A stretch of 64,000 nt of DNA from Convolutriloba macropyga (taxonomy: Eukaryota), in assembly GCF_964194025.1 (NCBI RefSeq), contig NC_134474.1, forward strand, positions 1,178,001 to 1,242,000. The letters run 5' to 3'. The notes beneath the pieces are model-generated. The model was not told the origin of the DNA, ran no database searches, and saw only the letters and a program-made list of their open reading frames with translations. A program made the position numbers and the translations under genes. Below are positions 5,874 to 61,859 of the stretch, in pieces. Numbering within the stretch: the stretch's first letter is position 1; every line of letters starts with the position of its first letter.

Positions 5874-5977
5874 AGAAATTAATATTGAAACGCTATTTCA
5901 AACTTTTGGCTTGGCAGTTTTTTGGATTCTCAGAATCATATATCTAATGAACTTTCAGATATTTTTTTGGAGAAATT

Positions 5978-7738: not shown

Positions 7739-7900
7739 TTTTGACTTTTGAGAAGAAATCTGATCGACTTCTTTGCAGCTTGGTTTTTGATGAAATGGCG
7801 CGGCGCGTTTAATTGGAGAAGGTTTGTTTTTGTAAGCTTTGCTTCCAGGGGACTTCTTTCGTCTAATGACGCGCTGACCGATGTGAAGTGATCCTCCTAA

Positions 7901-8170: not shown

Positions 8171-8173
8171 CAG

Positions 8174-9022: not shown

Positions 9023-9915
9023 TGCTCCTCTTCAGTGTTTAACACATCAACTTATACTAATTCCGGTTCGTAAAACTTCCTTAGAATTTTAACGTTGTTT
9101 GCGTCAATCAGATTGTAGGTAGGTGGACTTGATGCAGCCAATCGTAGTACTGTGAAAACTTCGTCTGTATAATTCTGAGTATAACCTTTTCTGAAGGTAT
9201 CGTCTGGTTTCGCTATTCGTACCAGGTCCCCCTCTTCGAATTTTGGTTTATATTTATTGTTGTCTAAAGCCATCGAAATTAAAAATGGTTCATGTTTTTT
9301 TGAAAACTTTATTTGGGGCTAACTTTGTGACGCGGTTAACACGACTGTTAATGATATTTACGAATTTGGGAAGCTCCTTTATATAGTTCCAAGTCCATTT
9401 TTCTTCCAAGTATCTGTATATAATGTTTTTAAGTGATCGAATATTTCTTTCCGCAAACGCGGATTTGGTTTCGTTTTCGGTTGTATACAAAAGAATCTTT
9501 TTGTTTTCACAGAAAGTTTTGAACTCGCCTTTGAATTCAGTGCCTTTGTCCGTCCAGACTTTCTCTGGTTGTCTCGTCTTGATCATTTTTTTGAAGACTT
9601 CAAAGCAATCTTTTGCATACATAGAGGTTGAACACGTAAATAACGTGATAAAACGTCAACTGCAACCAATAGATATTTAACCCCATTATTGTGCTTTGCT
9701 AATTTGTCCATATAGGCTACATCCATGGACCAGATCTCGTTTATTCTGTAAGCAACTACCTTCAATCGTGGAAAATATTTCCGGAGTTGACGATATTTGG
9801 TGTACGAGTTTTTCGATTGAAAAAATTTCTCAATTTTTTTTCTGTAATAGACCGCTTTCCTTTTTGATGTTGGTAACACTTCCAAAGGCTGCTTTTCCTT
9901 TTATGTAGACGTCAT
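9019..9915 (-). pseudogene. Retroviral-like (rve, DDE) integrase, frameshifted
   Basis: WSMDVAYM, VDVLSRY, WTDKGTEF, AERNIRSLK, GDLVRI...FRKGY...EVF...FYEPEL. Confidence 0.92.
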
Positions 9916-10643
9916 TTAGTTTTTTGATTTCCACTGAATGGAGTTTTCCAGCTTGTTGGCGTTTTTATTTCTTCCTCTGCGTCTGCGAAGCCTTCCTCAT
10001 CAAAGCTAGCAGTCTCTGTTTTTTCTGCTCTCTCGACAGCAGGTTTCTGTTCACTGGCTCCTCCATCTGGAAAATGACGTAATTTTTGCTCTTTCTGAAC
10101 TTTGATGAGCTTCTTTGCATAAGTATTACAAGTGTGGTGTGGTGCAAGGTTCAAATAATTCAGCACTTCATAATGGTCATGCGAAAGTTTCGTTGATGTT
10201 TGTTGTAATGCGTAGAGGAAAGTTGAAGCTGGAATGTTAGTGCTCCTCTCATCGATGAGAATTTCGCCTTCATCGTCCAGAGAGATGTTACGCGATTGGT
10301 TTATCTTCTTCAAAATTGTTTTTGATTTTTCAAGTTTGTCCTTGTCGAGAAAATTTATGTCATCGATCACATTCTGACTGATTTCATCAAACTCTTTCTG
10401 ATTAAACCCATCTGTAAATTGTTGCTGTTTTTCTTCCTCATCGGACACGATGACGTCATCAGTCTGTTGCTCTTTGTTCTGATGAATAACTGCTTCTGGC
10501 TGCTCTTGTTTCAATGTTCTCTGCAGAAGCGATAGTTGTTCTGATTTGCTTCGTGCAGTTGGGTCCTTCAATATTTGCGAAACCTGAGGTTGTTCAGTTG
10601 TAAACATGTTCCGGGGAATAAGCACAAATTCTTCAGTTGGCAT
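9912..10643 (-). CDS. Polinton hypothetical protein (243 aa)
   Basis: Intact ORF in the cassette; FVLIP start and W near the C-terminus; stop overlaps the integrase ATG. Confidence 0.7.
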   Translation of the reverse strand: MPTEEFVLIPRNMFTTEQPQVSQILKDPTARSKSEQLSLLQRTLKQEQPEAVIHQNKEQQTDDVIVSDEEEKQQQFTDGFNQKEFDEISQNVIDDINFLDKDKLEKSKTILKKINQSRNISLDDEGEILIDERSTNIPASTFLYALQQTSTKLSHDHYEVLNYLNLAPHHTCNTYAKKLIKVQKEQKLRHFPDGGASEQKPAVERAEKTETASFDEEGFADAEEEIKTPTSWKTPFSGNQKTK

Positions 10644-10929
10644 TTTTCTTCAGATACTCTAGACAAGATCTGGCAATGAGTCGAATCAGAGAATGCCCTC
10701 TCGTTGTTTGGAAATGCTTACTTCTTTGTACTGCTTTAAAATGTTTTTCGGAAAGTTGTCGCAGTTGGGATTCGAATTTTTGCAGTTCTGTTTTGTTGAT
10801 TGAGACAACACCAGAGAGGACGTTCATAACACAATCGCTTAGAAACCAAATGAAATCAATATCTTGGGCTAGGAAATTTCGCTTGCCTCTCGATTTCGGG
10901 TTACTGCCGACGCACCAGCACTTCAGCAT
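10633..10929 (-). CDS. Small basic Polinton protein
   Basis: FLSDCVMNVLSGVVSI resembles the conserved ECxxNxLxGxV motif; located between the ATPase and the 243-aa ORF. Confidence 0.6.
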   Translation of the reverse strand: MLKCWCVGSNPKSRGKRNFLAQDIDFIWFLSDCVMNVLSGVVSINKTELQKFESQLRQLSEKHFKAVQRSKHFQTTRGHSLIRLIARSCLEYLKKNAN

Positions 10930-11589
10930 AAGCAAGTGTCTCTTTTTCATTCGTTATTGGTGTAATAATGGCTTCCTCCGAAGGAATATAGAAAAATGAC
11001 GGTTCGGGACCAATAAGTTGAGAAGAAGATTGTAAGCCTTGACTTGTTTTCGGATCAAGGTCAACAATTAAATGTCCATATGGCTGAGTTGTCGCTAATT
11101 TGTATGCATCCTTGAGTAATTGGAGGAAGTTCAACTGTTTTCCGAGATTTTCTATTTGTTGAATGTCGCGCAATGATTCGAACAAAATGATATGAGTGGT
11201 GTTGAGATCAATCGTTCGTGACCACTTGCTCTGTTGGAATAAGTTATGTTTGACATAAATCACGTGGAGTCTTCTGTGTCTTCTGATGTTGCAATTTTTA
11301 CGAACTCTTTGTCCTTAAATATTTCCTCGCATCATAAACAAGAAGGCAATTCGAAAGTTTCTTTGTTAGATCCAATCCAGAATATTTGATGAACTCGATT
11401 TGTGGTATTTTACATTGTGTAGCTGTAAAAATGTCCTGGAACTCTTTGTAGAAGTAATAAAATTTTGATAAATCTTGGGTAAAACGATGAGCTTTGCAAC
11501 ATGTTGAAAATTAGGTCGGTTTTCCCTGAACCACTCGGGCCTACAACTGCCATGAAGATTCTATCGTTTGTAAGAATAACTTTATTCAT
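10901..11589 (-). pseudogene. A32/FtsK-HerA-type packaging ATPase, frameshifted
   Basis: Walker A GPSGSGKT, RHRRLHVIYVKHNLFQQ, LNTTHIILF, PYGHLIVDL. Confidence 0.9.
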
Positions 11590-11864
11590 AGTTTGGGATT
11601 TGGCAAAATATAACCAACTAGACTCGAAAGCAGTGCAATCCAAATTGACTTCTCCTCACAACTTCCCGATATCAAGAACAGCATGGCGAAACAAAGACTG
11701 ATCATGAGCACTATAATATTCACTTGAACAAAGAATATGATCTCTGATCGAGGGACTATGGTGTTGGAACAGCACCACCATGGGGGTTTCTCTCGGTTTC
11801 CATCATCGAAAAGCAAGTTTGTAATACCCCCATCAAATTCATCTCTTACAACTCGGTTTGTCAT
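11586..11864 (-). CDS. Small two-TM membrane protein
   Basis: Two hydrophobic segments ending in LVGYILPNPKL; first gene of the cassette. Confidence 0.7.
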   Translation of the reverse strand: MTNRVVRDEFDGGITNLLFDDGNREKPPWWCCSNTIVPRSEIIFFVQVNIIVLMISLCFAMLFLISGSCEEKSIWIALLSSLVGYILPNPKL

Positions 11865-27099: not shown

Positions 27100-27502
27100 T
27101 GTCAAGGACACTGTGACTTCTCGTTAACAAAGCCCGGCATTTCACAACAATTATTGTCAAAACCTGACGGAAGTAGTCGACTTCTCAAAAACCTTTTATA
27201 GCAACAAACAAGCGAAACAAAACGAATCAAATTTAATTTTACTTTAATAATACATAATCAAAATAGTCCTAAGCATCCCCCAATCCCAACACCATTCATT
27301 AATGAATGGTGTTGGAATTGGGGGGATGCTTAGGACTATTTTGATTATGTATTATTAAAGTAAAATTAAATTTGATTCGTTTTGTTTCGCTTGTTTGTTG
27401 CTATAAAAGGTTTTTGAGAAGTCGACTACTTCCGTCAGGTTTTGACAATAATTGTTGTGAAATGCCGGGCTTTGTTAACGAGAAGTCACAGTGTCCTTGA
27501 CA
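27100..27502. repeat. 403-bp near-perfect spacerless palindrome occupying the 3' LTR position of a BEL/Pao element
   Basis: TGTCAAGGACAC...CCATTCATT|AATGAATGG...GTGTCCTTGACA, centre 27300/27301, one substitution and one indel. PPT-like GGGGCCGGCGA immediately 5' on -. Confidence 0.92.
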
Positions 27503-44056: not shown

Positions 44057-45072
44057 GGCATCGTTTGAAATAGAAAATTCGGTCATGAAATGACTTGGGT
44101 TTTAATTGTTGCCACATTACCTCTTAGGTTTCACAGAATTGCTACCCCACTCCATCCTTTAGATTTTACCGCTATTGGAAGAATTATCAGATGAGCAATG
44201 TTGTTTGAGCTGCTGCGCGCATAATTAATTTCTCGGAACCCTTCTGATACTGATGACACTCTCGTTCTACTTTGAGTTAAAGAAAAATTGTCCACAGTGA
44301 ACGGTGAAGAAGTGGGTATACAGCAGAACCTTGCGTAGACATAAATATCCTAAGTTCAATCCCCTGACTCACTTTCATTTGTGCTCTCAAGTAATATTAA
44401 CAAATCAATATATTGAAATGAATTCTCTTATTAATTTACACTGGAAATGGATTTACACTCGGTGTTAGATACAATTGAGAACCGATTGGGACTCTTTGGT
44501 TTCTCATAAGTTACGCTCTCTCGGTTTTTTAGGCTTGTGCCCACCATTATAGATTCAATTTTCCTTCAATTACATTAGACAAAATCTGATCCATTTGTTG
44601 TATCCATGCAATTTTAGTTTTCAAGTGCTGATATTTATTTTAAACTTTAAATGTTTTCCATTGCTTATTGAATGTTATTTTAATTTAATTGATTTAATTG
44701 TGAGGATATTTTTCAGGGAATCCACGAGCAAGACTTATCTGCCAACGAAGGTGTGAACAATAGCCTCTCCTTGGTACGTACTGCTTATAACTACCATATC
44801 ATTAATTTATACAGTTAAAATTTCCCACTTTCTATATTCGCCGTTTTCATCAAATTTTTCAAGGATAATTTTCGGGAAATTTTCATAGGAGAAGTTCAAA
44901 TTTTGAACTTAAGAAGCTCTAATAGCAGATGAAAGATGTTCAGTTGTAGGCATTGAGTTTTCCGAGCGTTCACTTTATAACGTTTCAGTTTTATGGGATT
45001 TATTATAAATCCTTCCACAACGCTGAAGCGTAAGAAAACGTTTAGTAACTACCAAAAAAATTGAAAGCTCAA

Positions 45073-45201
45073 AGTAGTGGATAAAACAGGGCTTCCAGCC
45101 ACCAGCAAAAATTTGACCCTTTCTCCAAGCGCTAATCACGCATGTCGAATCTGGCCAAATTTTACTGATTTCTGGAAGCCTTGTTTTATCCACTACTATA
45201 T
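45073..45201 (+). repeat. Left TIR of element B (self-complementary)
   Basis: AGTAGTGGATAAAACA...TGTTTTATCCACTACT; reverse-complement match to 61399-61526. Confidence 0.95.
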
Positions 45202-45410
45202 ATTAGCTCTAAATTTGATAAAAATTAAAATTAAAATAAAAAAAAACAAAAAATCAAAAAATCAAAGCAAAATTTATATTTCACTCTTTAAGAGTGATTC
45301 ACTCTTATTCGCAGTGATCCCCAGTAGAAAAGATTGCTCTTTTTCGCCCTTAAAGAGTGAATCCCTCTTTTTTGATATTTTTTTATTTTTTTTATTCTTT
45401 TTATTTCAAA

Positions 45411-46286
45411 TTATCTATACTTTTCAATAAATTTATATTTTCTTTTTGTTTTTTCTATATTTATTCCATTATTAATAAGAAATGATACAAAATTATAGTA
45501 TTTACATGAACAACTGTCTTCTGTTTGGTTAATAACTAAAGGACTTACAGCTCTAGGACTTTGCCAACTAGGATTAATTGTTTTATCCGCGAAGCGGTTA
45601 CACCGATCAGTTATATCAGGGAACCTGCTTTGCAGATTTCTACTAAATCCTCTAGTCATATCTATATCTGGATGTTGTTTCTTTACATGAGCCCGTATCC
45701 CATCATATCTCACAACAGAAGTACAATATGGACAATTAACTTTAGCTGAAGTACAACTTCTACATGTATACTTACCCTCATCAAAATTATTTAGTGGTTT
45801 TATATAATTACACTTATTACAACATCTAGTTAATACTTCTGGGCTGGGGTTAAGGTTAGGGTTAGGGTTGGGGATAAGGTTAGGGTTGGGGTTGGGGTTA
45901 GGATCTGAGTTCGAGTTATAGTCATAGATAGAACCAGAACCAGGACTAGAGCTAGAACTGGGGTTAGAACCAGAACCAGAACTAGAACTAGAACTAGAAC
46001 TAGGGTTAGAACTAGAGTTAGAATTAGGGTTAGAACTAGAACTAGGGTTAGAACTAGAATTAGAATAAGAATTAGAACTAGGGTTAGAACTAGAATTAGA
46101 ACTAGAACTAGATTCATTTTTTAAAGAACAACCCCACGGAGAAAAATTATTAGCACAAATACCACTTAATATTATATTACCACACATGCATTTATCAGTT
46201 TTATCTTTATGAAATGATTCATAATGATATTTTAAAACAGCAATGTTTCCACATTTATAATTACACTCTAAACATTGTAAAAGCAT
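45411..46286 (-). CDS. Multi-zinc-finger protein with S/N/P low-complexity linker (291 aa)
   Basis: CLECNYKC...HYESFH, CNKC...CRSC, CPYC...HVKKQH; TTATAAATG start context. Confidence 0.75.
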   Translation of the reverse strand: MLLQCLECNYKCGNIAVLKYHYESFHKDKTDKCMCGNIILSGICANNFSPWGCSLKNESSSSSNSSSNPSSNSYSNSSSNPSSSSNPNSNSSSNPSSSSSSSSGSGSNPSSSSSPGSGSIYDYNSNSDPNPNPNPNLIPNPNPNLNPSPEVLTRCCNKCNYIKPLNNFDEGKYTCRSCTSAKVNCPYCTSVVRYDGIRAHVKKQHPDIDMTRGFSRNLQSRFPDITDRCNRFADKTINPSWQSPRAVSPLVINQTEDSCSCKYYNFVSFLINNGINIEKTKRKYKFIEKYR

Positions 46287-46314
46287 TTATAAAAGGGTAA
46301 ACTATAAAATTTAC

Positions 46315-47979
46315 CTAATCCTTCACAGGGTAATATTTAACCATGATTTCAGTTAAATCTTTAGTATTATCTTTAGATGTGATACACTCTGCTAAATATC
46401 TATTTCCTAAAGTATTGAGTGTATTAGTTTTACATCTCTTATCTAAAATCAAATCAAGGTCTAATTCTTTTTTATCTTTAACAAAATTTATAATCTCTTC
46501 TCTGAGTTCTTCATTATTTATATATAGTTTGTTTAAAAACCTTCCTCCCTTTCTATTCAAAATTCCCATCTCTTCATTGACGAAGTCATAGTTACACTGA
46601 TCAGTATACGAACTTTGTTCGTGGTTTACCAAACTGCTTCCCTGATCAGTATAACTGCTTCGTGTTTCACCTTCCAACTCTTCTCCATATCCAACATTAA
46701 CTAATGTATTTACTCAACTCAACATTGTACTTGCTCCCATTGCTACAGTTCCAGCATTTCTTGATACTGAATTAGGATAAAAACAATTAAATATATATAA
46801 ACCTGCGCCTATAATTCCACCAATATTTGATAAAATTTTCATACCCTTTCCCATAATCATTTTTTTAGTTAGAACATCATTCTGAATCTTAATATTATTT
46901 AAAGTAAGAAGTTTATTAAAATAAAACTGATAATTATCATGATTAATAACACTTCTATCTGTTGCATTAGTCATTAGTGGTTTCATATATGCTATAAGTT
47001 AATTTATATCTTCTCTCTCTAAATTATCTTTTAAACTAAGAGCTTTTAAATCAAGGAAACCAACTCTTGAATTATATATCATCGTTCTATTACTACTAAT
47101 AATAATAAAAGTATTTTCCTTTTTACTATATTTAATTATACCATAACGAAGTTCATCTGACATTTCATCTGTATAATTATAATAGTTACTATTTAATTCA
47201 CTAATTATTTTATTGAAGTCATGTTCCCATTTATATATCTCATTAAAGTTTTTAAATAGGTCAGGTCCATTATAAGTTGTTAAATGAATAGTATCACAAC
47301 TCATTCTTGCTGTATTAATTATTTGAGCTGGTTTATGACACATTACAATCATTTGAATATTATAATGTCTTTCTTCAGTAAAATAATAATCTATATCCTT
47401 ATTTAACCTATCACCCATATCATCAAGTACTATTACACAATTTTGAAATTTATGCATATTATTTTTTGTGATCATATTTATATCACATTTATTAAACCCA
47501 GTATAAAACTTATTAGACTCAGGATCTATCCAGTCTCTGTCATCTTTACAAACTATAACTATGGACCTTTGGTCTTGATCTTGAACTTGATCTTGATCTT
47601 GAACTTGATGTTGAACTTGATCTTGAACTTGATCTTGAACTTGATCTTAAACTTGATCTTGAATTTGCTCTTGATCTTGAACGTGATGTTGAACTTGATG
47701 TTGAACTTGATCTTGATCTTGAACTTGATGTTGAACTTGATCATGGTCTAAGTATAACTTTAAGTATTGTCTAATAAAATATGTTTTACCCGTTCCAGTT
47801 CCACCATAAACAATAGTAAGTAGTGGTGACTTTTCATATTCAAATCTAACTAGACTCCTATTCATAAATCCACCAAAGCTTTCTTTTAGTTTTGTATATT
47901 TACTTGGTCTTGAATCAAATATTATATAACAAATTCCAATAATAATAATAAAAATAAAAACTGCACTACTTGTTTCCTT
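46315..47979 (-). pseudogene. Second packaging-type ATPase with N-terminal TM anchor and C-terminal hydrophobic extension (~554 aa; three in-frame stops, start mutated to AAG)
   Basis: ORFs 47647-47865, 46999-47475, 46714-46986 and 46315-46677 share one frame. GGTGTGKT, IVLDD, FTEERHYNI. Confidence 0.82.
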
Positions 47980-48063
47980 TTTTATATAATAAATATAGAT
48001 TTGATTTAGATTTAGACTCAGACTTATAATTAGACTTAGATTTAATAAATTTATTATATAAAA

Positions 48064-48694
48064 ATGCTCATTCTAACTTTTGAGGAATTCAATAATAAAT
48101 TTAATATTGATAATAATGCTATGAGTGATATCAGAATAAAAGATATAGGTAAAGATATAAGTCTAACACCAATTGAGATTGTAATGAGAGATCAAACTCC
48201 AGATAGTATCAGTGATCCTAACTTCATTATTGTAAATCTACATCCAACTGAAGGTACACATTGGTTTTTAGTTATAAGAAGAGAAGGTGGTCCAACATAT
48301 TACTTCGATAGTTTTGGTGTAGAAACCCCAACATTATTCCTAGAAGAATATGTTGATCTAGGCTCTAATGAGAGAATACAACAATATGATGAATCTTATT
48401 GTGGGGCTTATTGTTTATATATGATCTATCTTATTGATAGAGGATTTAGAATTAAAAGTGCTTCGAATATTCTAGTTAATCAATGTAAATATCCAGAAAT
48501 ATATAATGAGTGTTCTTGTTTAAGTTGTAATGTTAATCGGGAAACTTGTTTCGCAGATGATAATGATAATGTTAATGATAATGATAATGTTAATGATAAG
48601 GATAATGTCAGTGATAATGATAATTATAATGAAAATGATAATGTTATTGATCTACGAAGTAGCTTTACTAATAATGATAAAGATAATGTTAATG

Positions 48695-48729
<35 letters not shown>

Positions 48730-49466
48730 GATAGGAATAATGAATCTAATAGGAATAGCAATAGTAATAGCATTAGTAATAGTCCTACTAATAATATCCG
48801 TGAAGCGGTTTACCGATATCTGTAAACATAAATGATGATCTATTTTCATGGCTAAATGATGACGATATAATTACTGAAGCCGCATTCCCAGATAACTTTA
48901 GATGTATAATATCTGGTCCTAGTGAATGTGGTAAGACATTCTTATTGAAAAATCTACTTCTAGCTAGTATATACTTTGATAAGTTATACATCATTGGACC
49001 TACTGGTGATCAGTACCATGGTATAGAAAGAATAAACCCAAAAAGAGATGTTGAATTTATTAAAGATATAAAAGATTTACCATCTCCTGATAAACAACCC
49101 AAAGACTTAAAGAAACTAATGATATTCGATGATGTTAGAGCCAAGGAACCAGTTATCAATGAATACTTTTGTAGAGGTAGACATAATAATTGCAATATGA
49201 AATAACTTAATCAAAACCTGTTCTCTCTGGATAGGCAGAGTGTTAGAGAGAACTGTAATCAATTTATTTTATTTTAACAGAGAGGTAAAGTCCTCATATC
49301 TATATATCAAGATTTCTTTAATAATGTTGAACTTAGTTATAATGATTTTGCTAATATATGTAATAAGGTATGGAAAGAGCCTTATAATTATATTGTCATT
49401 GATGTAACTAAAAATAAAAATATTAATGGTAAACTAAGAATTAATTGGGATCGGAGAGCTTTGTAG
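48064..49466 (+). pseudogene. Adenain-like protease fused through an N/D-rich linker to a packaging ATPase (1-bp frameshift at ~48810, two later stops)
   Basis: VNLHPTEGTHW, YFDSFG, QQYDESYCG; then GPSECGKT, MIFDD, RGRHNN, RENCN, EPYNYIVID. The ATPase frame has no ATG of its own. Confidence 0.82.
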
Positions 49467-49484
49467 TTTAGTTTAAGTTTAAGT

Positions 49485-49635
49485 ATCAGGGAACCTGCTT
49501 CGCAGAGAAGTGTAGGTCTAAGTACAAGTCTAAGTATCGGGAACCTATTTCGCAGATAAGTATAAGTATAAGTATCGGGAACCTGCTTCGCAGATAAGTA
49601 TAAGTGTAAGTATCGGGGGAACCTGCTTCGCAGAT
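49485..49635 (-). repeat. Four intergenic copies of the hairpin micro-repeat separated by TAAGTA hexamers
   Basis: ATC(A/G)GGGAACCTGCTTCGCAGA(T)-like units at 49485, 49536, 49574 and 49612. Confidence 0.9.
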
Positions 49636-49645
49636 AAGTATAAGT

Positions 49646-50458
49646 CTAAATCAAATGTAAAGTAAAACTTAATAAATCACCATTAAAGTCTATAGGTCTT
49701 CCATGCTCATCTTTAATATGAAATTCTATATATTCTATTCTATCTTTAGTTACATTTTGATACAAGATATTAGTTGGTATAACATTTATCAAGTAACCTG
49801 GTGGTTCTGTTAGATAAAAAGTATGTAATATATCTGTATCTTTACCATTATCTTTAGCTCCAGATATAATATTGCAATGAATGTTAATAGTACTAAAACC
49901 CATAATATCAATAATTTTCTGAGATTTATATCTACTTTTTTATAAATTATTTTTCTAAATCCTATTAATGAGGCTAGTGAGTTTTCTATATCAAAGCTGA
50001 GTGCTCCTTGTTTTATTTCCATTAAACATTTCATCGTATTCTTATCAGGTTCTATGCTCATGTGCTCCCGGTGTAATAGTTGAATATAGCAACGGGATTC
50101 TTTTATAATTATGATTAAGTATAGATGTAATGTTTGGGCTTGAGGTAGAGATAGGGTTAAGGTTAGGGTCAGAGCTAAGAGCCCGAGGTAAAGCTTCATC
50201 ATCTTCTATAACAGTACTAGCATATAAGAATTGATTATTTCTCCTATTCACATTAAACACCGAATTATAAACAGATAATCTAATTAAACCTAATTTTGTT
50301 GTATTAAGTATAGGTTCAATAAAGTTAAACTTTTCATTTGGTTTTAACATTCTAAAGTTAAATGTATGCTCTTCTTTAGTTTTAGTTAAAGCTTCGTGTA
50401 TATTTTGTAGTTCTCTTAACATTAAACTATCGGTGAAACCGCTTCGTGAATCAGTCAT
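49646..50458 (-). pseudogene. Minor capsid protein (penton-like), frameshifted
   Basis: LSVYNSVFNV...NNQF, ITPG, INIHCNII, PPGY, DEHGRPIDFNG...FTLHL across three frames. Confidence 0.82.
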
Positions 50459-50474
50459 TTTTTATCTAATAAAA

Positions 50475-51719
50475 ATGGATTTTAATTTGGATACAACTTA
50501 TGGTTATAATAATGATATACATAAAAGTAAGATTATAAAATATAAACCTAATAATCTAGCAACAATGAATACGGTTAATACCAATGTTAATATCATACTC
50601 AATAGAGAAGAGAATCACTTAAATTTGCGTGATTCATATCTAGATATAGAGTTTGTTGTATCAGATGATGCTGGTGGTGTATTTGCTATTGATGCTAATA
50701 TCAGATTAGTTAATTATGGTATGATGGCATTGTTCAGTTCAATTAAGCTTGAAACTAGTGGTGGTTGGACAATTGAATATATAGATCATTGTCATCCTAA
50801 TCTATTGATGTATAAGTTATTAACTAGTACTGTTGATGAATATGAGAGTGGTTTTGTTAAAAATCAGGGCAATAGAGATAGTCAACTTAAAAGTGACCAT
50901 ATTGCTGCACAACGAGGACATTTGTATATGATGATTAAGATGAGTGATCTATTTGGTTTCGTAAATGATTTAGGAAAGATTATATATGGTTTAGGATTTA
51001 AACTATTATTAAAAAAGAATAATAATGATAGAGCTCTATATAGAGTTAATGCTAATCCTGGTGCAGTTGCTAATGATGGTAATATAGAAATTAGAGATAT
51101 ATCATGGTGTGTACCTAGTATTGATCCTAGTAATGATAATAGAATTATTGTACAAACGGGTTTAAGTAAAAGGAATAATGTAGACTTTAGTTATTATGAA
51201 AGAAAGACATTTTATAAGAATGTACCCAATGCTACTAACTTCTTGTTTGATCTTGGTATGGAAAGTGGTATGGAAAGACCGCAATATATAATAGTTGGTT
51301 TTGAAAATAATAATGTTAATGAACAAACTCATGATGCAAGTACATTTGATGTAATGAATGTTACTGAGTGTTATTGTAAGATTGGTAGTGAGTTTTATCC
51401 CGAGGATAGAATGAATATTAATTATGGAACCAATAATTATAATGAGGCTTTTAAAGAGATTGTTAGCTTTAATAAAGATTATAATGGGCTATCACATAAT
51501 ATAAAACCATATATAAATCACAGAACATTCAAAAGTAATTATAGAATATATGTATTCGATACTAGATATCAAAGGGATCATATAGGTCCACAACCAATAC
51601 AACTTAACTTTAAATTTAGTGCTGCAGTTGCAGATGTTATATGTCATGCATTAGTTTTAACTAAGAAGGTTATTAGTGTGAATAGTGATGGTAATAAGAT
51701 GGTAGACACAATATCATAG
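50475..51719 (+). CDS. Major capsid protein (414 aa, intact)
   Basis: LRDSYLDIEF, ALFSSIKL, SDLFGF, ISWCVP, ERPQYIIVGF, FYP, IYVFD; size and context fit a Polinton MCP. Confidence 0.85.
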   Translation: MDFNLDTTYGYNNDIHKSKIIKYKPNNLATMNTVNTNVNIILNREENHLNLRDSYLDIEFVVSDDAGGVFAIDANIRLVNYGMMALFSSIKLETSGGWTIEYIDHCHPNLLMYKLLTSTVDEYESGFVKNQGNRDSQLKSDHIAAQRGHLYMMIKMSDLFGFVNDLGKIIYGLGFKLLLKKNNNDRALYRVNANPGAVANDGNIEIRDISWCVPSIDPSNDNRIIVQTGLSKRNNVDFSYYERKTFYKNVPNATNFLFDLGMESGMERPQYIIVGFENNNVNEQTHDASTFDVMNVTECYCKIGSEFYPEDRMNINYGTNNYNEAFKEIVSFNKDYNGLSHNIKPYINHRTFKSNYRIYVFDTRYQRDHIGPQPIQLNFKFSAAVADVICHALVLTKKVISVNSDGNKMVDTIS

Positions 51720-51870
51720 ATATAATTTAAGTCATAGATATAATTTAAGTCATAGATATAATTTAAGTCATAGATATAACTCTAGCAATAATTATAATTT
51801 TAGATATAACTCTAGCGATAGTTATAATTTTAGATATAACTCTAGCGATAATTTATAATTATAGTATAAT
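51715..51870. repeat. Short tandem repeats (18-mer x3, 30-mer x3) downstream of MCP
   Basis: CATAGATATAATTTAAGT x3; TAGATATAACTCTAGC(A/G)ATA... x3. Confidence 0.8.
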
Positions 51871-51940
51871 ATAGTTATTGTTATAATTATATACTTATAC
51901 TTGTACATAACCATATACTTATACTTATATTTATAGCTAG

Positions 51941-52135
51941 TCAGCTCAAATTGTTTTTCTTGTTAATACCTAACTATTTCTTATTAGTATTAACAAAACC
52001 TTTAGCATAAATAATGTCTAATTTCTATTTATTCTCTAGAGCCAAGCCTCTAGCTTCAAGCTTAACCTTAGCCTTGGGCCTAACCTTAGGCTGAGGCTTA
52101 ATAACAACAAAGGGATTATACTTTTTAACTTCCAT
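51941..52135 (-). pseudogene. Small basic protein (64 codons, two in-frame stops), absent from the ORF track
   Basis: MEVKKYNPFVVIKPQPKVRPKAKVKLEARG..., preceded by TATATATAAAAAATAATG; back-to-back with 52154. Confidence 0.5.
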
Positions 52136-52153
52136 TATTTTTTATATATAGAA

Positions 52154-52573
52154 ATGGGTCTTTTAAATAATTTCAAAACTAATTCATATTGTGTTGGAGG
52201 TAGACATTATAGTGGTACTGTTAATATAAGAGGAGCTATCACTTCAAAAGATACTAAAATGTTAAAAGGTAATTGTGTTTTATGTAGAAGGAATAAATCA
52301 ATGACAGTATCTGATGCAACAATAGAAGCAGAAGGACTTAAAGATTTCTTTCAAAGTGTTGGTAGGGCTACAGTTAACTTTGGAAAGAAGGTTGCCAATA
52401 ATCCAGTAAGAGCATTAGAAATAGCAAGTAAAATAGCAAGTGCAGCTGCAACTAGAAACCCTAGAGCAGCTTTATCAGCCACACCCGATTTAATAAAATT
52501 TGCAACTACTGGTGAAGGTATAAAAGTAGTACAAAAAGGAAGAGGGTTATACTTAGGTACAAAGAAAAGATAA
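52154..52573 (+). CDS. Zinc-ribbon plus amphipathic-helix virion core/lytic-type protein
   Basis: MG start, YCVGGRH...GNCVLC, AEG|LKDFFQSVG amphipathic helix, KGRG|LYL tail. Confidence 0.7.
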   Translation: MGLLNNFKTNSYCVGGRHYSGTVNIRGAITSKDTKMLKGNCVLCRRNKSMTVSDATIEAEGLKDFFQSVGRATVNFGKKVANNPVRALEIASKIASAAATRNPRAALSATPDLIKFATTGEGIKVVQKGRGLYLGTKKR

Positions 52574-52763
52574 TTATTTGATTATAATTATGATTATTTT
52601 ATGTTTATGATTATGATTATGATTATATCCATGCTTATATCCATGATTATATTATGTTTATGATTATGATTATAGCTATGATTATGATTATATATTTATC
52701 GATAAATATTATTACTAATATTATTATTACTAAAAACATTGTTATTACTAAGCACTAATTTCT

Positions 52764-53330
52764 TTAATCTAAAAAAATACTCAGCTTGATTTTCTTATTC
52801 TTTTTATAATCCTCATAAAACTTAACAAATTCATTATACTCATCATTATCTATTTTATTATCATTCATTGATTTAGTATATAGTTTATTAAACTTATCAC
52901 TAAACTGTTTACTTAAAATATACATTTGTGAATACTTTATAATTTTATTTCTAATTTTAGTATTAATTGTTTTTGATAATGAACCACAAACAGTTGCTGT
53001 AGCAAAAGCTGTTGGTATAGAATAAGCTAATCCTATACCTGTTAATGAAACTGATGTTTTTGTTGCAGTTGTTGCTATTGATGATAATACTATTTCTGTT
53101 ATCTCAGCTATGTTAATATAATTTTTATATCTACTTAACTTCTTATTATAGTTATTAGTTTCAGTTTCATAATAATTTCTAATATCTTTTATAATGTTAA
53201 TACTGTTGGTAAATTTATTATTAGCTTGAATCTTTTCGTTTATCAATCTTTCTGATACTGATGACAAATCTGGATATAGAAATCTCTCACTCGGTGCTGT
53301 TGGATTGGTCATTGCTTTGCTTATTTTCAT
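52764..53330 (-). CDS. Membrane protein with PTAP and LYPDL late-domain motifs
   Basis: MTNPTAPSERFLYPDLS, coiled coil, hydrophobic hairpin, DNKIDNDEY EF-hand-like end. Start at 53330 or 53312. Confidence 0.75.
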   Translation of the reverse strand: MKISKAMTNPTAPSERFLYPDLSSVSERLINEKIQANNKFTNSINIIKDIRNYYETETNNYNKKLSRYKNYINIAEITEIVLSSIATTATKTSVSLTGIGLAYSIPTAFATATVCGSLSKTINTKIRNKIIKYSQMYILSKQFSDKFNKLYTKSMNDNKIDNDEYNEFVKFYEDYKKNKKIKLSIFLD

Positions 53331-53991
53331 TAGCAAAAGTTCTTTCTATTTCTTTCATTATATCTTCTTGATTAAAACAATAATGCATCTCAAGTCTATC
53401 TTTCTCTTTATTATCAAGTAACTTACTTTGTAAAAGTATAGCAATTATATATTGTACTATAACACCTCTAAGAGATTTATTGTATTCTTTCATTTCTCTC
53501 AGACCGTTAGTAAACATTTCATCTAGTTGTATGTTAGTGATATTCTGATTAAACTTATTATTATCAAATTCTTGCTTTAATTGATTATATTTAGAGATAG
53601 TATCTGCAGCAACTTTATTACAAAACTTAACAGTATTTCTGACTTCATTTTTTGATTCAATAAACTCATTAATTAGTTCTTCATTAACTTGTGTTTCATT
53701 TAGTTTTAATGTTTTAGTTGTAACTTTATCAAAGTCACCCTTTCTTAATTCAGTTATGTTTCTACTTAAAATGTCTATTTTATTAGAAGAGGATAATAAG
53801 TTATTGTCACAATACTCTTTATTAACAACAACTTTTTCATCTCTAGGAGGAAGAACATTTGTAATTTTATAGGTATCTTTCATATCAATATCATCATTAT
53901 CTTCTAGGAATAACCCACGAGCCTTACTTAGTATTAAGTTGTTTCCATTCCCTATATGAGGTTTCGCTTGGTTAAATCTATTTCTTGTCAT
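53287..53991 (-). CDS. Fibre/spike-like coiled-coil protein (234 aa)
   Basis: DMKDTYKITNVLPP....VVNKEYCD resembles the trimeric neck motif KIxNVxxPxxxxDAxNKxYVD, followed by heptads. Confidence 0.55.
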   Translation of the reverse strand: MTRNRFNQAKPHIGNGNNLILSKARGLFLEDNDDIDMKDTYKITNVLPPRDEKVVVNKEYCDNNLLSSSNKIDILSRNITELRKGDFDKVTTKTLKLNETQVNEELINEFIESKNEVRNTVKFCNKVAADTISKYNQLKQEFDNNKFNQNITNIQLDEMFTNGLREMKEYNKSLRGVIVQYIIAILLQSKLLDNKEKDRLEMHYCFNQEDIMKEIERTFANENKQSNDQSNSTE

Positions 53992-54025
53992 TATTTATAT
54001 TAAGAAAAAAATCCGGCTTGCCGGC

Positions 54026-55015
54026 TTAGGACCGTAGGTCTATATTTAATGATTCCAAAACCTTATTATTAGATTCAAAATCAAACTCGGATTTCAATAG
54101 TTCCCGTTCATAATATTTGCCTTCTATTATCTCTCCATTAATATCTTCTATTTCATATGTTGGTGGATGTGTTTTTAGAATTTCATTCACTTTAAACAAT
54201 TCTCTATTCCATTTAGAAGTGTAACCTTTAGAGAAGATATTACGTTTATCTACATTTCTAACATAATCACCAACTTTAAGTTTAGGTTTAATATTCTTAA
54301 AACTAAAAGTGTATTTAACTTTATCAGGATTATTAGAAGCATCAACTGGTGTCATATTAATTGTTGAGTGAATGTTATTGTTATATGTTACAACAGCTTC
54401 ATTTCATATATTTACCCAATTACCATCGCCCTTGATTAACATTGGTTTATTTATTATGTGTAATAATGTTCTATTAAATCTCTCTAAAAACACATCCTTT
54501 AAATCACTATAAGTAGAATATAGCTCTATCCCTGAAGCGGCTTTGCGGGTTCCATATTCTTTAAGTAAAGATTTAAATGTTTTATTGTAAAACTCACTAC
54601 CTCTATCTACCCATAACTTTTCTGGTTTTCTAGGTTCAGAGCCACCTTGTGGATGTTCACTAAATACTATTTTAAAACAATTAGTTATAGATAAACCAGA
54701 TTTATTCTATGAAGGAATAGCCCATGCATATTTTGTGATTATATCTATAACTGTTAATATAAGTTTATAATTATTGTTGTATTTACTTAGAGATGACTTA
54801 TCAATTAAATCAGCTGACCATGTTTCATCTTTATATAATGGTATTATTCTTTGTCTTCTAAACTTTGTTATTCGAGGACTGAATACTTTTTTAGCTAGTT
54901 GTTGTTGTTGTTGTTTTTCTATCGTTTTATTTATCGACATAGTCATCTGCGAACGAGCTCTGCTCGTGGCTAGCCAAGCAGGTTCCCTGATAGCTTCGCT
55001 CAGGGACGTAGTCAT
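54026..55015 (-). pseudogene. Retroviral-like (rve, DDE) integrase, frameshifted
   Basis: WSADLID, VIDIITKYAWA, LWVDRGSEFYN, ERFNRT, YNNNIHST, GDYVR...FSKGYT..W..ELF, GKYYEREL. Confidence 0.93.
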
Positions 55016-55023
55016 GGATTCTT

Positions 55024-55891
55024 CTATTTACCATAATTAAAAACAAAATTATCTAGTTGGTCTTGATTAATATAATTCATAGATAATAGTTGCTTAGATA
55101 TATCTAGCACTTCATCATGTAATCCATCATGACCAGCTTTTGTTTCTAGTATTAGTAATTCTAATCTTTCTAATAAATTATTTGGGTTGCCATGTAATCT
55201 TCTGCCAAATATATCATCTCTTACCTTTATTATACGTTTTATTGTTCTATATCTAGCGCTTTTCTTATCCCCTTTTCCTAAATCATATCTAATATCCTTT
55301 AAAAACCTTTTAATTTTGTTTTCATCTTCCTCAACCTTATCATCATATGATGCATTTGTTTTAGTAAGAAAATCAGTAAATCCTTCTGAAAACTCATATA
55401 AAATATCCCTAACTAAAAATGCACCCTGCTCTAGAGTTATATTAACACCATTCATTTTATATCTCCTACTAGGTAAATCTACGAGTTCTAATTTTAATTG
55501 AGGATTAGTTTGAGCCCCCATGAAGAAGTTTGGCTGTTTTTGTATCAACATAAACTGGTGCTATATCTTGTTGAGTCCCCTTTAACGTTTCACCAATCTT
55601 GGAAGCAGTTTCATTAAACTGGGAACCAGCTTGCTCGATCATCTTAGTTTGTTTATCTAACTCTTGATTTTGCAAATCTATTGCTCTTAATGTTTGTTCA
55701 CTTAATGCTAGATTCTGTTCATTGTTTGCGTTTATCTGCGAAGCAGTTTCACCGATAGTTTTGGTTAGAGGATCAAATAACTCTTCTATTTCACCATACT
55801 ATTCTTGTTGTTTTAATTTGTCTTCTAATCTATTTCTTCTGTTTTGTTTTTCTATATTATTTAATTCTATAGGTTTATCTAGTTTAGTCAT
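55024..55891 (-). pseudogene. Conserved Polinton coiled-coil protein with C-terminal PNxLxxRLxLLxxxxxAG motif
   Basis: MTKLDKP...ELFDPLTK coiled coil, a stop and a frameshift, then NPNNLLERLELLILETKAGHDGLHDE. Confidence 0.7.
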
Positions 55892-55927
55892 TTTATATAT
55901 ATTGAAAAATTATAATAAGAGTAAAAA

Positions 55928-56248
55928 ATGGATAATGAAAACAGCTTCTCTCTTAATCTAAAAAGATGTTTAGCTTGTAAAAGACGTTGTTATACTACAG
56001 ATGAGTTTAATGATCATATTAAGGAACCAAATCATGATGATTTAATAATTTCAACTTATTCTAAATATGTAGATGGGGCTAAGAAGATAATAAAATTTCT
56101 AGAATATAATAAAAATATAATAGCTGGAGCTACACTATATAAGAATACAATCATGGGAGACCTCAAGGAAAAATATATGGCTCAGATAATGATTTATAAT
56201 ATACTAACTACCAACCATATGGATGTAATGAATGAATTAGGTCTATAA
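55928..56248 (+). CDS. Small C2H2-like zinc-finger protein
   Basis: CLAC...FNDHIKEPNH; AAAAAATG start; convergent with pPolB. Confidence 0.65.
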   Translation: MDNENSFSLNLKRCLACKRRCYTTDEFNDHIKEPNHDDLIISTYSKYVDGAKKIIKFLEYNKNIIAGATLYKNTIMGDLKEKYMAQIMIYNILTTNHMDVMNELGL

Positions 56249-56264
56249 TTATTTGTTATAAAAA

Positions 56265-59200
56265 TTAGCAAAGCTCGTTATATAATATAATAGCAACTTC
56301 AATTAACTTTCTATCGTCATTAATGGTTAGTTCTAGAATATTATTAACCAGTAGGTCTTTGTCTTCATCTAATGATCTGCGAAGCAGTTTCACTGATGCT
56401 TGGTGGATCATTTTTATTAAATCTCTTTTGAATAGATATAGATTCTCATCATGAGGATAGCTTTTAATATTGTTTTCATAAAACCTTTTATCATCAAATA
56501 TATTTAAACTAATCTTACTTGTTTTTGTTGTTGTCATGTTATCGCCAACTTTTTGTATTCTACATTCATCTACTGTTCTCTGTGTATTATTCATTAATGC
56601 ATCATAATAATCTATGTGCCTAGCATTATCATGCTTCTTTATTCCTTTTTCTTTAGTGTTTTTAGGATAATTTTTGAAGCTATATGTTTTGGGGGACAAT
56701 GCTATAAAATCCTCAATAATCCTACTTCCCAGCTCGTGCTTAAACTTGCCGGGGACTTTATTATTAGTTTTTATAGGTATGTCTAGATTACTTAAGTCCA
56801 TATGCTCATCAATAACTTTACCTTCACTATAAATCAATACGAAACTGTCCGTATCCATATAGTGAAGTGTTAGATCTTTGAGGGATGGTTGTAGAATATT
56901 ATAGAATACATCATACATGTGTAATTTACTTAATTCTAAGATAGTAACACCTACATATACTGGAAAATCATATTCTATTTTTTTCTTTATATATTCTATT
57001 TGGCTATAATTTCTATATCTAGTTATATTCTTAAAAGTTGGTTTACTTACACTTTTCATTATCTTTTCTTCATCATGCAAAAACTTGCTTTGAAAGAAGT
57101 GTAGAGGATTCATGCACATTCTTCCATATAAAGAGTTATTCATTAATTTCCTTACATCTTTTTCTGCTTCAGTTTTAGCTGTCGCTCTTTTATTTGTATT
57201 GTTTTGTATATAATCGATACATATATAATCTTGTTTAAATTTAATTACTCTATGTTTTTTTGTTACTTTTACTCCCATCTTAACATAGAACTTTAACATC
57301 CTATAATGAACAATATATTCTGTTTTGTTGTTTTGGTCTAAAAATAATTTCTCGGACCTTGCTTTACTTTTCTCTCTTTGTCGGTATCCCAATTCATTAT
57401 CATTTATCTTTCTTTTATTAGGCATTAGTGCTAACCGTTCTGTTCTCTCTTTACATTCATTAGTATAATCAATATCACAAACTATATAGTAACCATGATC
57501 ACTATCATCTGGAGTATTCAATATTACATCGAGGAACCCGCTTGGCTTGCCACGGACGAAGTCCGTTCGTGGATCTAGAGTAGTAGTAGTAATAAACTCA
57601 AAATCCTTATAAGGTAACTTTTGCATCATTGCATAACCATATAGGTTGTTTGCGTCTATGTACCATATGGTCTTACCATCAATGTTATCTATATATCTAT
57701 CACCTATTATTCCGCATATACCACCTCTCTTTGCTCCAACAAAATCATCTAGCATTTGTTTATCTTGCAATGTATCCAATGTAACACCACTTGACATTAA
57801 CCAACAATCAAAACTATAACCTGGGAGACTTACATAATGTATTGAGTTGAGCTTGAATTCTTTCATACTTAGTTTAACATATTCATTCATGTAATAGTCT
57901 AATATTTCCACGTCATTCTGTAAATACTCTAAGTTAGATCTTTTCCAGTTTTATGAATGTTTTCATTATTAAAGTTATCCACTTCCTCTTGTGTTGGTAA
58001 TTTATTATGTAGAGAGGATTTAAAGTCTTCTCTCTTTAGATTACCTATAGCTTCTTGGTAGGTAGCTTTGCTACTATACGCCTCTAAACCAAAGTATTCA
58101 TATGGATATAATGTTTTAGTTTTACATCCGTATATCTTTGCCATTTGATCTAGAGGCATAGCTAAGAAGTTATAACTGTCTAAGAGTTCGAGACAACCAA
58201 TGCTAATTATCTTAGATTTACCAGCAGCTAGTGGAATGTTATCTACTTTTCTTTTATCATTATTCTGCCTAAAGAGTTCACTGTATAGTGGGTTGAAGTC
58301 AGAGCCAGAGCCATTATGGAATATTACTGGAATGAAGTTTTGTTGTTTGTACCTTAGATTACATATTTTACATGCTGGTCCTCTATATATACCAGTTTCA
58401 TGACAATGATCTCTTACTTTATTGATACATGTTTTGCTGCAGATGTGACAAGTGTTATTAGTTTCATGATATAATTTATCTTCTTCTGTGAATATCATAT
58501 TTTCATTATGTTTGAAAGTTTCTATTTCTAACAGATCTCCAGCAAATCTTTCGATGCAGCCTAGACCGAAGTAGTGTTTGAAGTTACCTTGCCAGGTGTA
58601 ACCCACAGCTATTGGAATATGTTCAGCTATTACATATTTTAAATCATTAGTTGAGACTTCAACAATGCAACATTCTATATCGGCAGTTATATTTTTTTAT
58701 ATTCTGACGTTTGTGTTCATTTACAAAATTAATGTTTTTTCTTAGGACAAACAATCTCTGGTTTGAATGAGGTGCTGCAGTCGTGTTTATCATATTTAAT
58801 TTGTGAGTTAAACCAATAGGTACACCTATCACAATAATAATATTTAATGTTGTTTTTATTTGGTCGTTCTAACAGGGTTTTTATATTTTTTATTAGGGCA
58901 CAGTGTTCTATTTGACCATTACTCCAAACTAGTATTCTTACATCTTTTCTATCTTTATTGAGATCATCCACTTGTTTAAACAGTTCTATTTTACCATTAC
59001 CACAAGGTGTGTATACCCAAATTTTAATATTATACAATTTCTGTATTCTTATTATATAAGCAAAATCATCTTCATGTTGTTGTCTTGTTTCAATTAGTTT
59101 ATCTACATATTTACTTTCTCGAGTTGCATGGTGTAGGGCGGGATGTAGCCAAGCAGTTATAGTTAGTCGTAAGCAATTGTATTTATAACTACGTATATTT

Positions 59201-59982
59201 AATGATTTAGAGTTTTTGAGATCTGGAGGTAAATCTATATAACTACCAATAGATGCTTTAGTTGGTTCAAAGTTTAACTGAATACTTCTTATTCCAAGAA
59301 ACTCAAAATCATAACCCTAACCTTCATATATTTCCTTTTCGAAATCTAGCCACCAATTGAAGTCACCATATTCATATATTGCATTATTATTAATATAATC
59401 AGTATTGAAAAATATTTTAGTAGTTTTAACTTCTTCTTTGGTTCTCTTCTTATAATCACATTCAGCCGTGATCTTATATTTAAAACTCTTAACTTTACGA
59501 AACTGGTAACAGTTTTTAATTTCTTCTAAAGAGTAATTAGTTGCTTCATCTATATCTTCAATGTAATTCCCACCTTTATCAGTAATGTAAAATTCTCTCA
59601 TGTTCTGACTTGAGTATATATCGAAGTCTTCTGTGTTTTCTAGATACATGCAATTGTGACTACATGAATGAGTAGTTAGAGCTACTTTGCTTCTAAATTT
59701 TTCATGACATTCTTTACATTCATACTTAATTCTGGTGTAGATATCCTCTTCAGTTTTAGTTTTAGGTTTGGTGGCTGGTTTAGTTTTTATATTATAATCA
59801 TCTTCATCCAAATTATACACCCTCTCCGAGATTTCCTCTTCTTCAGACTCAAACATTTTCTCCAATAGTTCCTTATGTTTGAGATCGTATGATTGATGCC
59901 TGTATAAAGCCTTCTTTGATTCAAAGGATAGATTACAGACATCACAGAAGTTTATGACACTAGTATTATTCGATTGAGACAT
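56265..59982 (-). pseudogene. Protein-primed DNA polymerase B with N-terminal C2H2 fingers and Endo VII/HNH-like insert
   Basis: CDVC/CKEC fingers, GSYIDLP, CHIC...VRDHCHETG.YRG.AC..CNL, LLDSYNFL, YPYEY, IDANNLYG, KLMNNSLYG, YMDTDS, PKTY, KGI, FDDKRF. Confidence 0.95.
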
Positions 59983-60027
59983 GATGTATTTTTTTAGGGA
60001 AATAATCAAAAAATAATTTTTCGAAAA

Positions 60028-60357
60028 ATGAAAATGAAATGTGATAAGTGTATAAATAAACCTTGGAAAGAATGTTGTAATAATTGTAAAGAATTAGAAT
60101 ATTCTTGTTCTGTATGTAAAAATATGGTTAAGGTTAAATATTATATAGAACATTTGGGATACCATTATTCTGATCCTGATCAATATCTAACGTGTAGTAT
60201 GTGTAATGTTTATAAACATATATCATTATATAGATTTAGAAATAGGAAATGTAGACTATGTTTTTATCTTCATAGATATAGATATGGTCACACTAGAAAT
60301 CAATTCGGAGAGCATGTTTATAAGTATAATATTCAAGAAGACATAGAAAAACACTAA
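60028..60357 (+). CDS. Small Cys-rich zinc-binding protein (109 aa)
   Basis: Five CxxC pairs; back-to-back with pPolB. Confidence 0.65.
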   Translation: MKMKCDKCINKPWKECCNNCKELEYSCSVCKNMVKVKYYIEHLGYHYSDPDQYLTCSMCNVYKHISLYRFRNRKCRLCFYLHRYRYGHTRNQFGEHVYKYNIQEDIEKH

Positions 60358-61398
60358 TCACTGTGTTTCCACCGATCCCAGTTTTTTTGACTGTGCTATT
60401 ATTGTTCGCTTTCTTTCATATTTAGCAACCGCTAATAGTATAAGAAGTCAACAAGCTTGGTTTAACATCGCATTACACTGCTTAGCAGATCGAATGAAAA
60501 GTGCATGTCATGCTAAAATGGCCGCCGCCATTGACAAAGAAAGCCACCACCACTAACAGAATGAAAACAAGTGAAAATTTCGAATATAAGATGCCCTTAA
60601 AAATTAGCTAGTAAAGTGAGTATTTATTAAAATCTTTATTTAATTTTTAATAGATTATACAAATCATTCAATTTAATAGAAGGATTTAATTATTATTTTA
60701 CTTTAAAACATGTAATTACTTGGGAAATGATAAATAATTTTAAGTTAAAAATCATGTGAGAATATTCTAGAAAAAGAATGTTCTAGAATAATTCTCCACG
60801 TGGGGACCTTTATCCTCAACGGCACTTTTTGGCTATTCATCATGAGTTTCACTTCACTACAAAAACTGTAAAATGATACATTAATATTGTTCAGTCAGCT
60901 TAATATTAGTATTCAGTCAGCCTAATAATTAAAATTAAAATTGTTCAAGCATTCTGTAGTTGCACCCTCCCCCACAGTTGCCATTAAGAAAGGTCGAGCA
61001 GTACTGCCGTAGCGTGGTAAAGGCGAGTCAACCTTTTATCAAGACCTCCCAAGACTCGGCTCAAAAATGTAACCAGGTACATAGAATCACTCAGTTAAAC
61101 ATCATAGATCAATCGTCTCCTGGTTAAAGTCAAAAATTTTAAAGCAACTTGTTTCTTATTATCCAATTCTAAGCAATTTTGAGTTATTTTCAGTCCATCC
61201 GATTCTATTGAAAAAAAACTTTGTGAGATGATTAACCTGATTTATTTCAGTATAGTTTGGCATATTAGATATGAAATTAGGCTTAAACCTAGCTTTGAGA
61301 ACTTTTGGATATTAGTGTATGAATTGCATAAATTATACTGGCTAGCTATGTACATTTTTGTACACAATTGTGCGCGTAGTATGTATTTATAGTGGTGA

Positions 61399-61526
61399 AT
61401 ATAGTAGTGGATAAAACAAGGGATTCAACAAACAGTAAAATTTGGCCCGATTCGACATGCGCGATTAGCGTTAGGAGAAAGGGACAAATTTTACTGGTGG
61501 TTGAACCCCTTGTTTTATCCACTACT
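61399..61526 (-). repeat. Right TIR of element B (self-complementary)
   Basis: AGTAGTGGATAAAACA 61403...TGTTTTATCCACTACT 61526, followed by the TSD. Confidence 0.95.
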
Positions 61527-61859
61527 GCTCAAATGCAGGGTAATTAATTAAAACGTTTCAATATCGTCACGCAAGGTTGAATATTGGCAATTTTTAGGTT
61601 GAATTTTTGCGTTTTGACTTTAAGCTATTGTTCATTCATATCCGAGGTTTGTTTTATTCATGTTACGGGCTCAACTACAACAAATACACTTAGCGTTTCC
61701 TATCAGTCATCTGGGCAATGAGCAGAGTTTGTGAAAATACTCAAAATTGATCGACGAACGGAACAGAGCAATTAGGTCAACTTAAAAAACTGGAAAATAT
61801 GGATTAGGGATTTAAATATGTGAATAATGCAAACTAAGGATAAGATTCAATAGTTTCAA

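Follow-up and report, generated by a model that had tools for sequence, protein, structure and literature searches.

A predicted membrane-anchored ATPase of the A32 type in a Polinton and in a palindromic capsid-less pPolB element family of one genome

The accessible portions of several Polinton papers mention one packaging ATPase (PMC8502044, PMC11161782, PMC12220804, PMC4028283, PMC3671162, PMC8097293), and Polinton virions, according to the available text of two sources, have not been observed (PMC8097293; bioRxiv 2026.06.19.733378). The ATPase is read as a capsid-filling motor. In nine elements, capsid, protease and ATPase are stated to have been lost jointly (PMC4028283, in the part available), and an accessible section of another study derives cytoplasmic linear plasmids from Polintons or Polinton-like viruses via loss of the morphogenetic module (PMC11161782). 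Among bacterial DNA motors, TraB assembles into hexamers that act as a channel in the membrane and pump plasmid DNA (PMC4447253, in the excerpt available).

The window analyzed here, a stretch of 64,000 nucleotides of the Convolutriloba macropyga genome, contains a Polinton/Maverick element with terminal inverted repeats, AGT-type ends and a 6-bp target site duplication (TSD), as is characteristic of the family. The Polinton gene set is present in this element, namely a protein-primed DNA polymerase B (pPolB), an rve integrase, a double jelly-roll capsid protein, a cysteine protease and an A32 ATPase; in the Pfam comparison, the capsid match is strong, and pPolB, rve and A32 are below the cut-off on broken pieces. 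The layout of the element, in window positions, is as follows.

45067-45072 and 61527-61532, 6-bp TSD, GCTCAA, flanking the element
45073..61526, Polinton/Maverick element, 16,454 bp, AGTAGT ends
45073..45197, left terminal repeat, self-complementary (z -10.1)
45411..46286, minus strand, Cys-rich zinc-finger ORF directly downstream of the anchored ATPase
46315..47979, minus strand, anchored ATPase gene, decayed copy; start codon lost, three internal stops
48064..49407, plus strand, cysteine protease, (ND)n linker and A32 packaging ATPase, split in the window copy
49646..50458, minus strand, putative minor capsid gene, broken; labeled from position only, no Pfam match
50475..51719, plus strand, ORF matching PF21738 (E 6e-23)
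54026..55027, minus strand, rve integrase, broken; PF00665 at E 0.007, below the cut-off
55928..56248, plus strand, small ORF, about 50% identical to an ORF in one subtype of the capsid-less family
56265..59982, minus strand, pPolB, broken; PF03175 at E 0.002, PF02945 at E 4e-9
60028..60357, plus strand, small Cys/His-rich ORF, 46-51% identical to a capsid-less family ORF
61403..61526, right terminal repeat, self-complementary (z -13.8)

Each terminal repeat is a hairpin of ~125 nt, and the left and right repeats are only 83-88% alike despite the perfect TSD. A short repeated DNA motif around CGAAGCAG occurs at 49388-49676 and in many ORFs of the Polinton family and of the capsid-less family described below; like the low-complexity inserts (SN, ND and QD repeats), it recurs in frame in several genes, and no polarity or enrichment of this type of motif common to the two families was found. 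Outside the Polinton, the window contains a perfect 182-nt inverted repeat with a 39-nt spacer (27100-27502). It also contains, at 804-11864, a series of minus-strand ORFs that begin with ATG, reach up to 423 aa and have higher GC (0.38-0.41); this series is possibly another mobile element.

A preliminary description had joined four ORFs at 46315..47979 into a single ATPase gene with a membrane anchor. The four stop-to-stop frames on the minus strand (47647-48072, 46999-47646, 46714-46998 and 46315-46713) are all in one frame, and translation of 46318-47979 on this strand, with X at the three stops, gives 554 residues in which all the motifs named in that description are found. The features of the gene, all on the minus strand, are listed below (KD, Kyte-Doolittle hydrophobicity; counts refer to alignment rows).

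47917..47973, N-terminal hydrophobic helix, predicted membrane anchor (KD 2.57 in the window copy)
47782..47805, Walker A, Lys in 42/49 rows
47647-47649, 46999-47001 and 46714-46716, internal stops
47569..47742, Q/D/V-rich repeat insert of variable length
47419..47433, Walker B, Asp-Asp in 46/51 and 48/50 rows
47356..47379, A32-type Arg-His motif, Arg in 44/51 rows
46699..46833, G/A-rich two-helix hairpin, moderately hydrophobic (KD 1.0-1.85; helices 317-349 and 353-377 in the model)
46318..46602, helical C-terminal tail, for which no relatives were found

The genome harbors at least 150 copies at 89-96% identity, and in 59 sibling loci no stop falls in any of the three break columns. At the first break, 12 siblings have a sense codon, 41 have a gap, because the repeat is shorter in them, and 6 are not aligned; at the second, there are 57 sense codons and 2 siblings not aligned; at the third, 53 sense codons, one gap and 5 not aligned. 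The stops that the siblings do contain (n=121) are scattered over 99 columns, with a maximum of 3 per column. The four ORFs are accordingly one gene, and the alternative of separate genes was rejected. The position of the hydrophobic segment inside the ORF holds up equally well: the anchor pattern is present in 50 of 69 loci, a Met lies 5-10 codons before it in 45 of these 50, and the frame is open from the anchor to Walker A in 40 and from the anchor to the tail in 16. With the anchor in frame and a Met ahead of it across siblings, a spurious anchor was likewise rejected. Among 40 copies chosen via the neighboring gene, the anchored ATPase is stop-free and in a single frame in 17 and lies head-to-head with the protease gene in 38. 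In a diverged subfamily (about 30-45% identity, 5 loci), it is found at the same place and with the same architecture, including the anchor, hairpin and tail. The Q-rich insert of the preliminary description is real but not a constant part of the protein, being variable in length and absent from this subfamily. The gene was functional in the active lineage.

The assignment of the core to A32/FtsK-type ATPases stands, given the Walker A, Walker B and Arg motifs and a Pox_A32 profile match above the cut-off (30.9 and 32.5 bits on natural copies, cut-off 22.8). Conservation reaches 86-96% of the aligned rows for the Walker A Lys, for Asp-Asp in Walker B and for Arg in the Arg-His motif; the FtsK_SpoIIIE domain stays below the cut-off (at most 17.7 bits vs 24) and covers Walker A only. 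In the A32/FtsK-HerA family, the strand that follows the Arg motif characteristically ends in Gln. The A32 of this element has this Gln, whereas the anchored ATPase has His at the strand end in 46/58 rows; the Gln is also missing from one soluble A32 family in the same genome, so that the feature is not strict. The anchor has a KD of 2.2-2.95 in relatives and 2.2-3.7 over all lineages, and 420 of its 480 alignment cells are hydrophobic and 5 charged; in the fold model, it corresponds to a predicted helix at residues 3-22 (pLDDT about 89). The model as a whole (pLDDT 64, pTM 0.43; a first model with pLDDT 42 was set aside) predicts the N-terminal helix, an alpha/beta core, two long hairpin helices and a helical tail. 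The G/A-rich two-helix hairpin described earlier is thus recovered, but its hydrophobicity is only moderate, weaker in the capsid-less family (KD 1.07 and 1.43) than in the window family, and the distant relative P0416 (see below) has no C-terminal hairpin.

The best viral fold matches include packaging ATPases of a virophage and of mavirus, adenovirus IVa2 and adintovirus FtsK (E 2e-5 to 5e-4), along with giant-virus P-loop proteins. Matches in the PDB are tied generic P-loop folds with Z of about 8 or less, HerA, EccC, Zot and B204 among them, and sequence searches of the PDB gave nothing useful. In the ESM Atlas, the whole protein falls with A32-type clusters at 0.87-0.89, and the C-terminal half gave no usable match. 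Homolog searches returned ENA proteins only, in several cases as the best 120-150 matches; phage and plasmid searches returned weak partial matches only, and no relatives were found in the viral and metagenome contigs scanned. Neither a polar 8-mer common to the elements nor a repeat array was found.

Counts of substitutions, which are crude and were made without a tree, show purifying selection on the anchored ATPase: in the window family, dN/dS is about 0.45 for variants present in at least 3 of 40 copies and 0.8-1.1 for singletons, and the contrast between shared and singleton variants gives p=0.004 for the C-terminal half and p=0.056 for the ATPase half. The anchor itself, with 6 non-synonymous to 1 synonymous shared variants, shows no constraint at the amino acid level. 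The neighboring A32, with dN/dS of 0.03-0.09, a value biased low because part of the A32 gene was the search query, is under stronger constraint than the anchored ATPase at 0.45.

The preliminary description had noted another ATPase in the element and read the anchored one as a neofunctionalised paralogue, such as an FtsK/TraB-like DNA translocase across a membrane. The other ATPase does exist, as an A32, but is not stand-alone: protease and A32 form one ORF in 22/29 siblings (L032-L060), with A32 as the C-terminal half, and this fused gene is the one that lies head-to-head with the anchored ATPase. The protease is so labeled from His and Cys motifs read from the sequence and from similarity to other Polinton families, with no Pfam match. 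In two other Polinton families of the genome, protease and A32 are separate genes. The anchored ATPase and the element's A32 share 28% identity over 79 residues, and a profile comparison relates them at 89% probability. In a tree of 16 sequences from this genome plus P0416, a 97/98 branch separates the anchored ATPases from the fused A32, which joins the stand-alone A32 from a different Polinton family (87/89). A recent duplicate of the element's A32 was rejected on the low identity and this branch, and descent from the element's own ATPase as its paralogue finds no support, given the same branch and the grouping of A32 with another family. Because the tree is midpoint rooted and has long branches, it excludes a recent duplication and does not give the origin or the direction of transfer.

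A profile search led to P0416, a protein of 384 residues encoded on a 7,727 bp contig from another source, with an N-terminal anchor and 35% identity over the core. Among the matches listed, it is the only relative that lacks a close match in this genome (best 41%), and it is the one protein that extends the distribution beyond this genome. A genome search with P0416 exposed a second family, with 107 matches to the family's own ATPase, many of which form convergent pairs about 3 kb apart. The unit of this family, about 7.5 kb long, consists of pPolB, one or two small ORFs, an anchored ATPase and a zinc-finger ORF. The ATPase has 390 residues, 23-24% identity to the window family and a colinear sequence up to the hairpin. 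The small ORFs have 46-58% identity to ORFs 55928 and 60028 of the window; the counterpart of ORF 60028..60357 is located just upstream of the anchored ATPase, and the zinc-finger ORF that follows the ATPase is weakly similar to window ORF 45411..46286 (31% over 61 aa, pairwise E 2e-4). Two subtypes can be distinguished, with pPolBs about 48% identical and in opposite orientation and ATPases 92-95% identical. In the ATPase core, dN/dS is 0.19 for variants of at least 3/30 copies vs 0.99 for singletons (p=0.0065 when singletons are compared with variants found in at least 2 copies). At E 1e-3, the 16 capsid-less loci examined yielded no gene for a capsid protein, protease, integrase or separate A32; the only further matches were a weak one that overlaps pPolB and weak A32 matches lying within the anchored ATPase. 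On the ORF maps of two arms, no space is left for a capsid gene, an integrase or other virion genes.

The capsid-less family is inserted as 15 kb palindromes (15.0-15.3 kb; the example locus L153:4406 to L154:9706, G000 C8, plus 15 further loci). Long inverted arms are present in 14/16 loci, one of the others being cut by a contig end and one tandem, and the palindrome center is a perfect hairpin. In the 6 elements with both ends located, the 6-bp duplication is perfect in 5 and matches at 5 of 6 positions in one. An assembly artefact is an unlikely source of the palindromes: the arms differ by about 2-8%, and the host flanks carry matching TSDs. The palindromic form could arise from a replicon that ends in a hairpin on one side and is protein-primed on the other, the duplex dimer of which would be integrated.

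At least two more Polinton families in the same genome (L245-L274) encode ordinary stand-alone A32s of 236-245 residues. In 10 loci (30 kb each) of these two families, we found no anchored ATPase and none of the small shared ORFs; pPolB was detected in 4/6 loci of one family and 4/4 of the other, so that two of the elements may be incomplete. A module of the ATPase, the zinc-finger ORF and the two small ORFs occurs with pPolB, with or without virion genes. As it is present in capsid-less elements and absent from two other Polinton families, the anchored ATPase gene therefore travels with the replicon module and not with the virion module. The linkage to a capsid that is expected of packaging ATPases is missing, the gene being under selection where no capsid gene was detected; we infer that it needs no capsid of its own element, in agreement with the role apart from capsid packaging proposed earlier.

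The explanation that we prefer, and to which we give about an even chance, is a TraB/FtsK-like membrane-anchored DNA ring pump serving a capsid-independent step. With no capsid involved, such a pump would drive the element's linear DNA into a host membrane or across it. The helix would stay uncleaved as an anchor, with the ATPase facing the cytosol or the nucleus; the core would form a hexamer, and the substrate would be the element's own DNA, which would cross the membrane into vesicles, into a neighboring cell or across the nuclear envelope, with the G/A-rich hairpin perhaps aiding the crossing. The pump is favored because of the analogy with TraB, a hexameric channel for plasmid DNA. The window Polinton would then be a two-motor hybrid in which the protease-fused A32 fills capsids and the anchored ATPase provides capsid-free movement. 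Several observations speak against the pump. With one helix per subunit, the protein may be tethered instead of building a channel for DNA; the hairpin has borderline hydrophobicity (KD 1.0-1.85), which is weaker among the capsid-less elements, and it is lacking in P0416; the model is of mediocre quality, and its PDB matches are generic P-loop folds; the sequence has His in place of Gln on the strand after the Arg motif, is under weaker constraint than A32 and shows no amino acid constraint in the anchor; and the 15 kb of the palindrome is near the helper's 16.4 kb, which fits the borrowing of capsids. A broader proposal, which we consider rather doubtful, is a eukaryotic counterpart of Streptomyces-type conjugation, whereby a minimal hairpin-centered pPolB replicon would spread between cells or compartments capsid-free via a single anchored DNA pump, and the window Polinton family would be a virus merged with such a replicon, with two motors for two routes of spread.

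The single anchor, which is the sole membrane feature common to all three lineages, could also belong to a tether or segregation motor that holds replicating DNA at the membrane of the ER or of the nuclear envelope and travels along this DNA, serving partition or the building of a replication site, with no membrane passage. The gene indeed accompanies pPolB and small zinc-finger ORFs, and a partner pore protein is absent from the capsid-less unit; but the window family keeps the G/A-rich hairpin, which a plain tether does not need, across subfamilies at 30-45% identity, and an integrating element should be less in need of partition, which makes this alternative unlikely. A link to capsids would be restored if the protein were a packaging adaptor, either as the virion motor of a membrane-containing particle or by steering the capsids of a helper Polinton to the element's DNA, in which case the palindromes would be satellites that borrow capsids and integrase. 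The core is of the A32 type, with packaging ATPases as the nearest viral folds, and the palindromes, which have 6-bp TSDs and no integrase gene, need integrase in trans, so a helper exists; at 15.0-15.3 kb, they are also nearly as long as the helper (16.45 kb). Nevertheless, the window element already owns a more constrained A32, two other capsid-coding families do without the anchored gene, and a satellite could presumably use the motor of its helper, so that we regard such an adaptor as quite unlikely. A role that does not involve DNA at all, with the ATPase acting on proteins or membranes in remodeling, secretion or interference with host defense, appears improbable: the core is closest to viral DNA-packaging ATPases, and the minimal replicon, with only four or five genes, includes this ATPase. 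Its attractions are the altered sensor position, the faster evolution compared to A32, a C-terminal half without known relatives and the presence of the protein-moving FtsK-clan members EccC/EssC among the tied fold matches; the order of NTPase, helices, hydrophobic hairpin and tail is also, we presume, superficially like that of membrane-fusion NTPases.

An A32-type ATPase with a predicted anchor that is conserved without capsid genes breaks the link between motor and capsid and points to a capsid-free route; it also offers one small protein for testing DNA transport across eukaryotic membranes. The capsid-less element to which the anchored ATPase is tied is apparently undescribed so far. In the main texts of the open-access papers searched, no Polinton with two ATPases was found, and no published match was found for the palindromic capsid-less pPolB family or the protease-ATPase fusion.

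Compared with the A32-like (FtsK-HerA) packaging ATPase of Polintons, the anchored ATPase of the window is likewise Polinton-encoded and agrees in Walker A, in a Walker B that ends in DD, in the Arg-His motif and in the Pox_A32 match; it differs in the extra N-terminal anchor and 150-250 additional C-terminal residues, forms a separate clade, and is a second ATPase of its element that persists in elements lacking capsid genes. Inovirus pI/Zot and adenovirus IVa2 are similar at the level of weak profile or fold matches, all below the family cut-offs. Zot/pI is a membrane-bound extrusion ATPase with a C-terminal membrane segment, whereas the anchor here is N-terminal and coat proteins are absent from the capsid-less unit. 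With Streptomyces TraB and FtsK/SpoIIIE, the protein has in common an FtsK-HerA-type ATPase on a mobile replicon and membrane anchoring, which is here predicted; it is much shorter, with an A32-like core, one N-terminal helix and a eukaryotic host. FtsK and TraB have a C-terminal DNA-reading domain that recognizes polar 8-bp sites; the tail of the anchored ATPase is helical without a match, and an enriched 8-mer common to the elements was not found. Finally, eukaryotic linear pPolB plasmids (pGKL, kalilo) and transpovirons are, like the second family, capsid-less linear replicons, descended from Polinton-like viruses that lost the morphogenetic module (PMC11161782). The second family differs in having retained an anchored ATPase and in its chromosomal form of hairpin-centered palindromes flanked by 6-bp TSDs.
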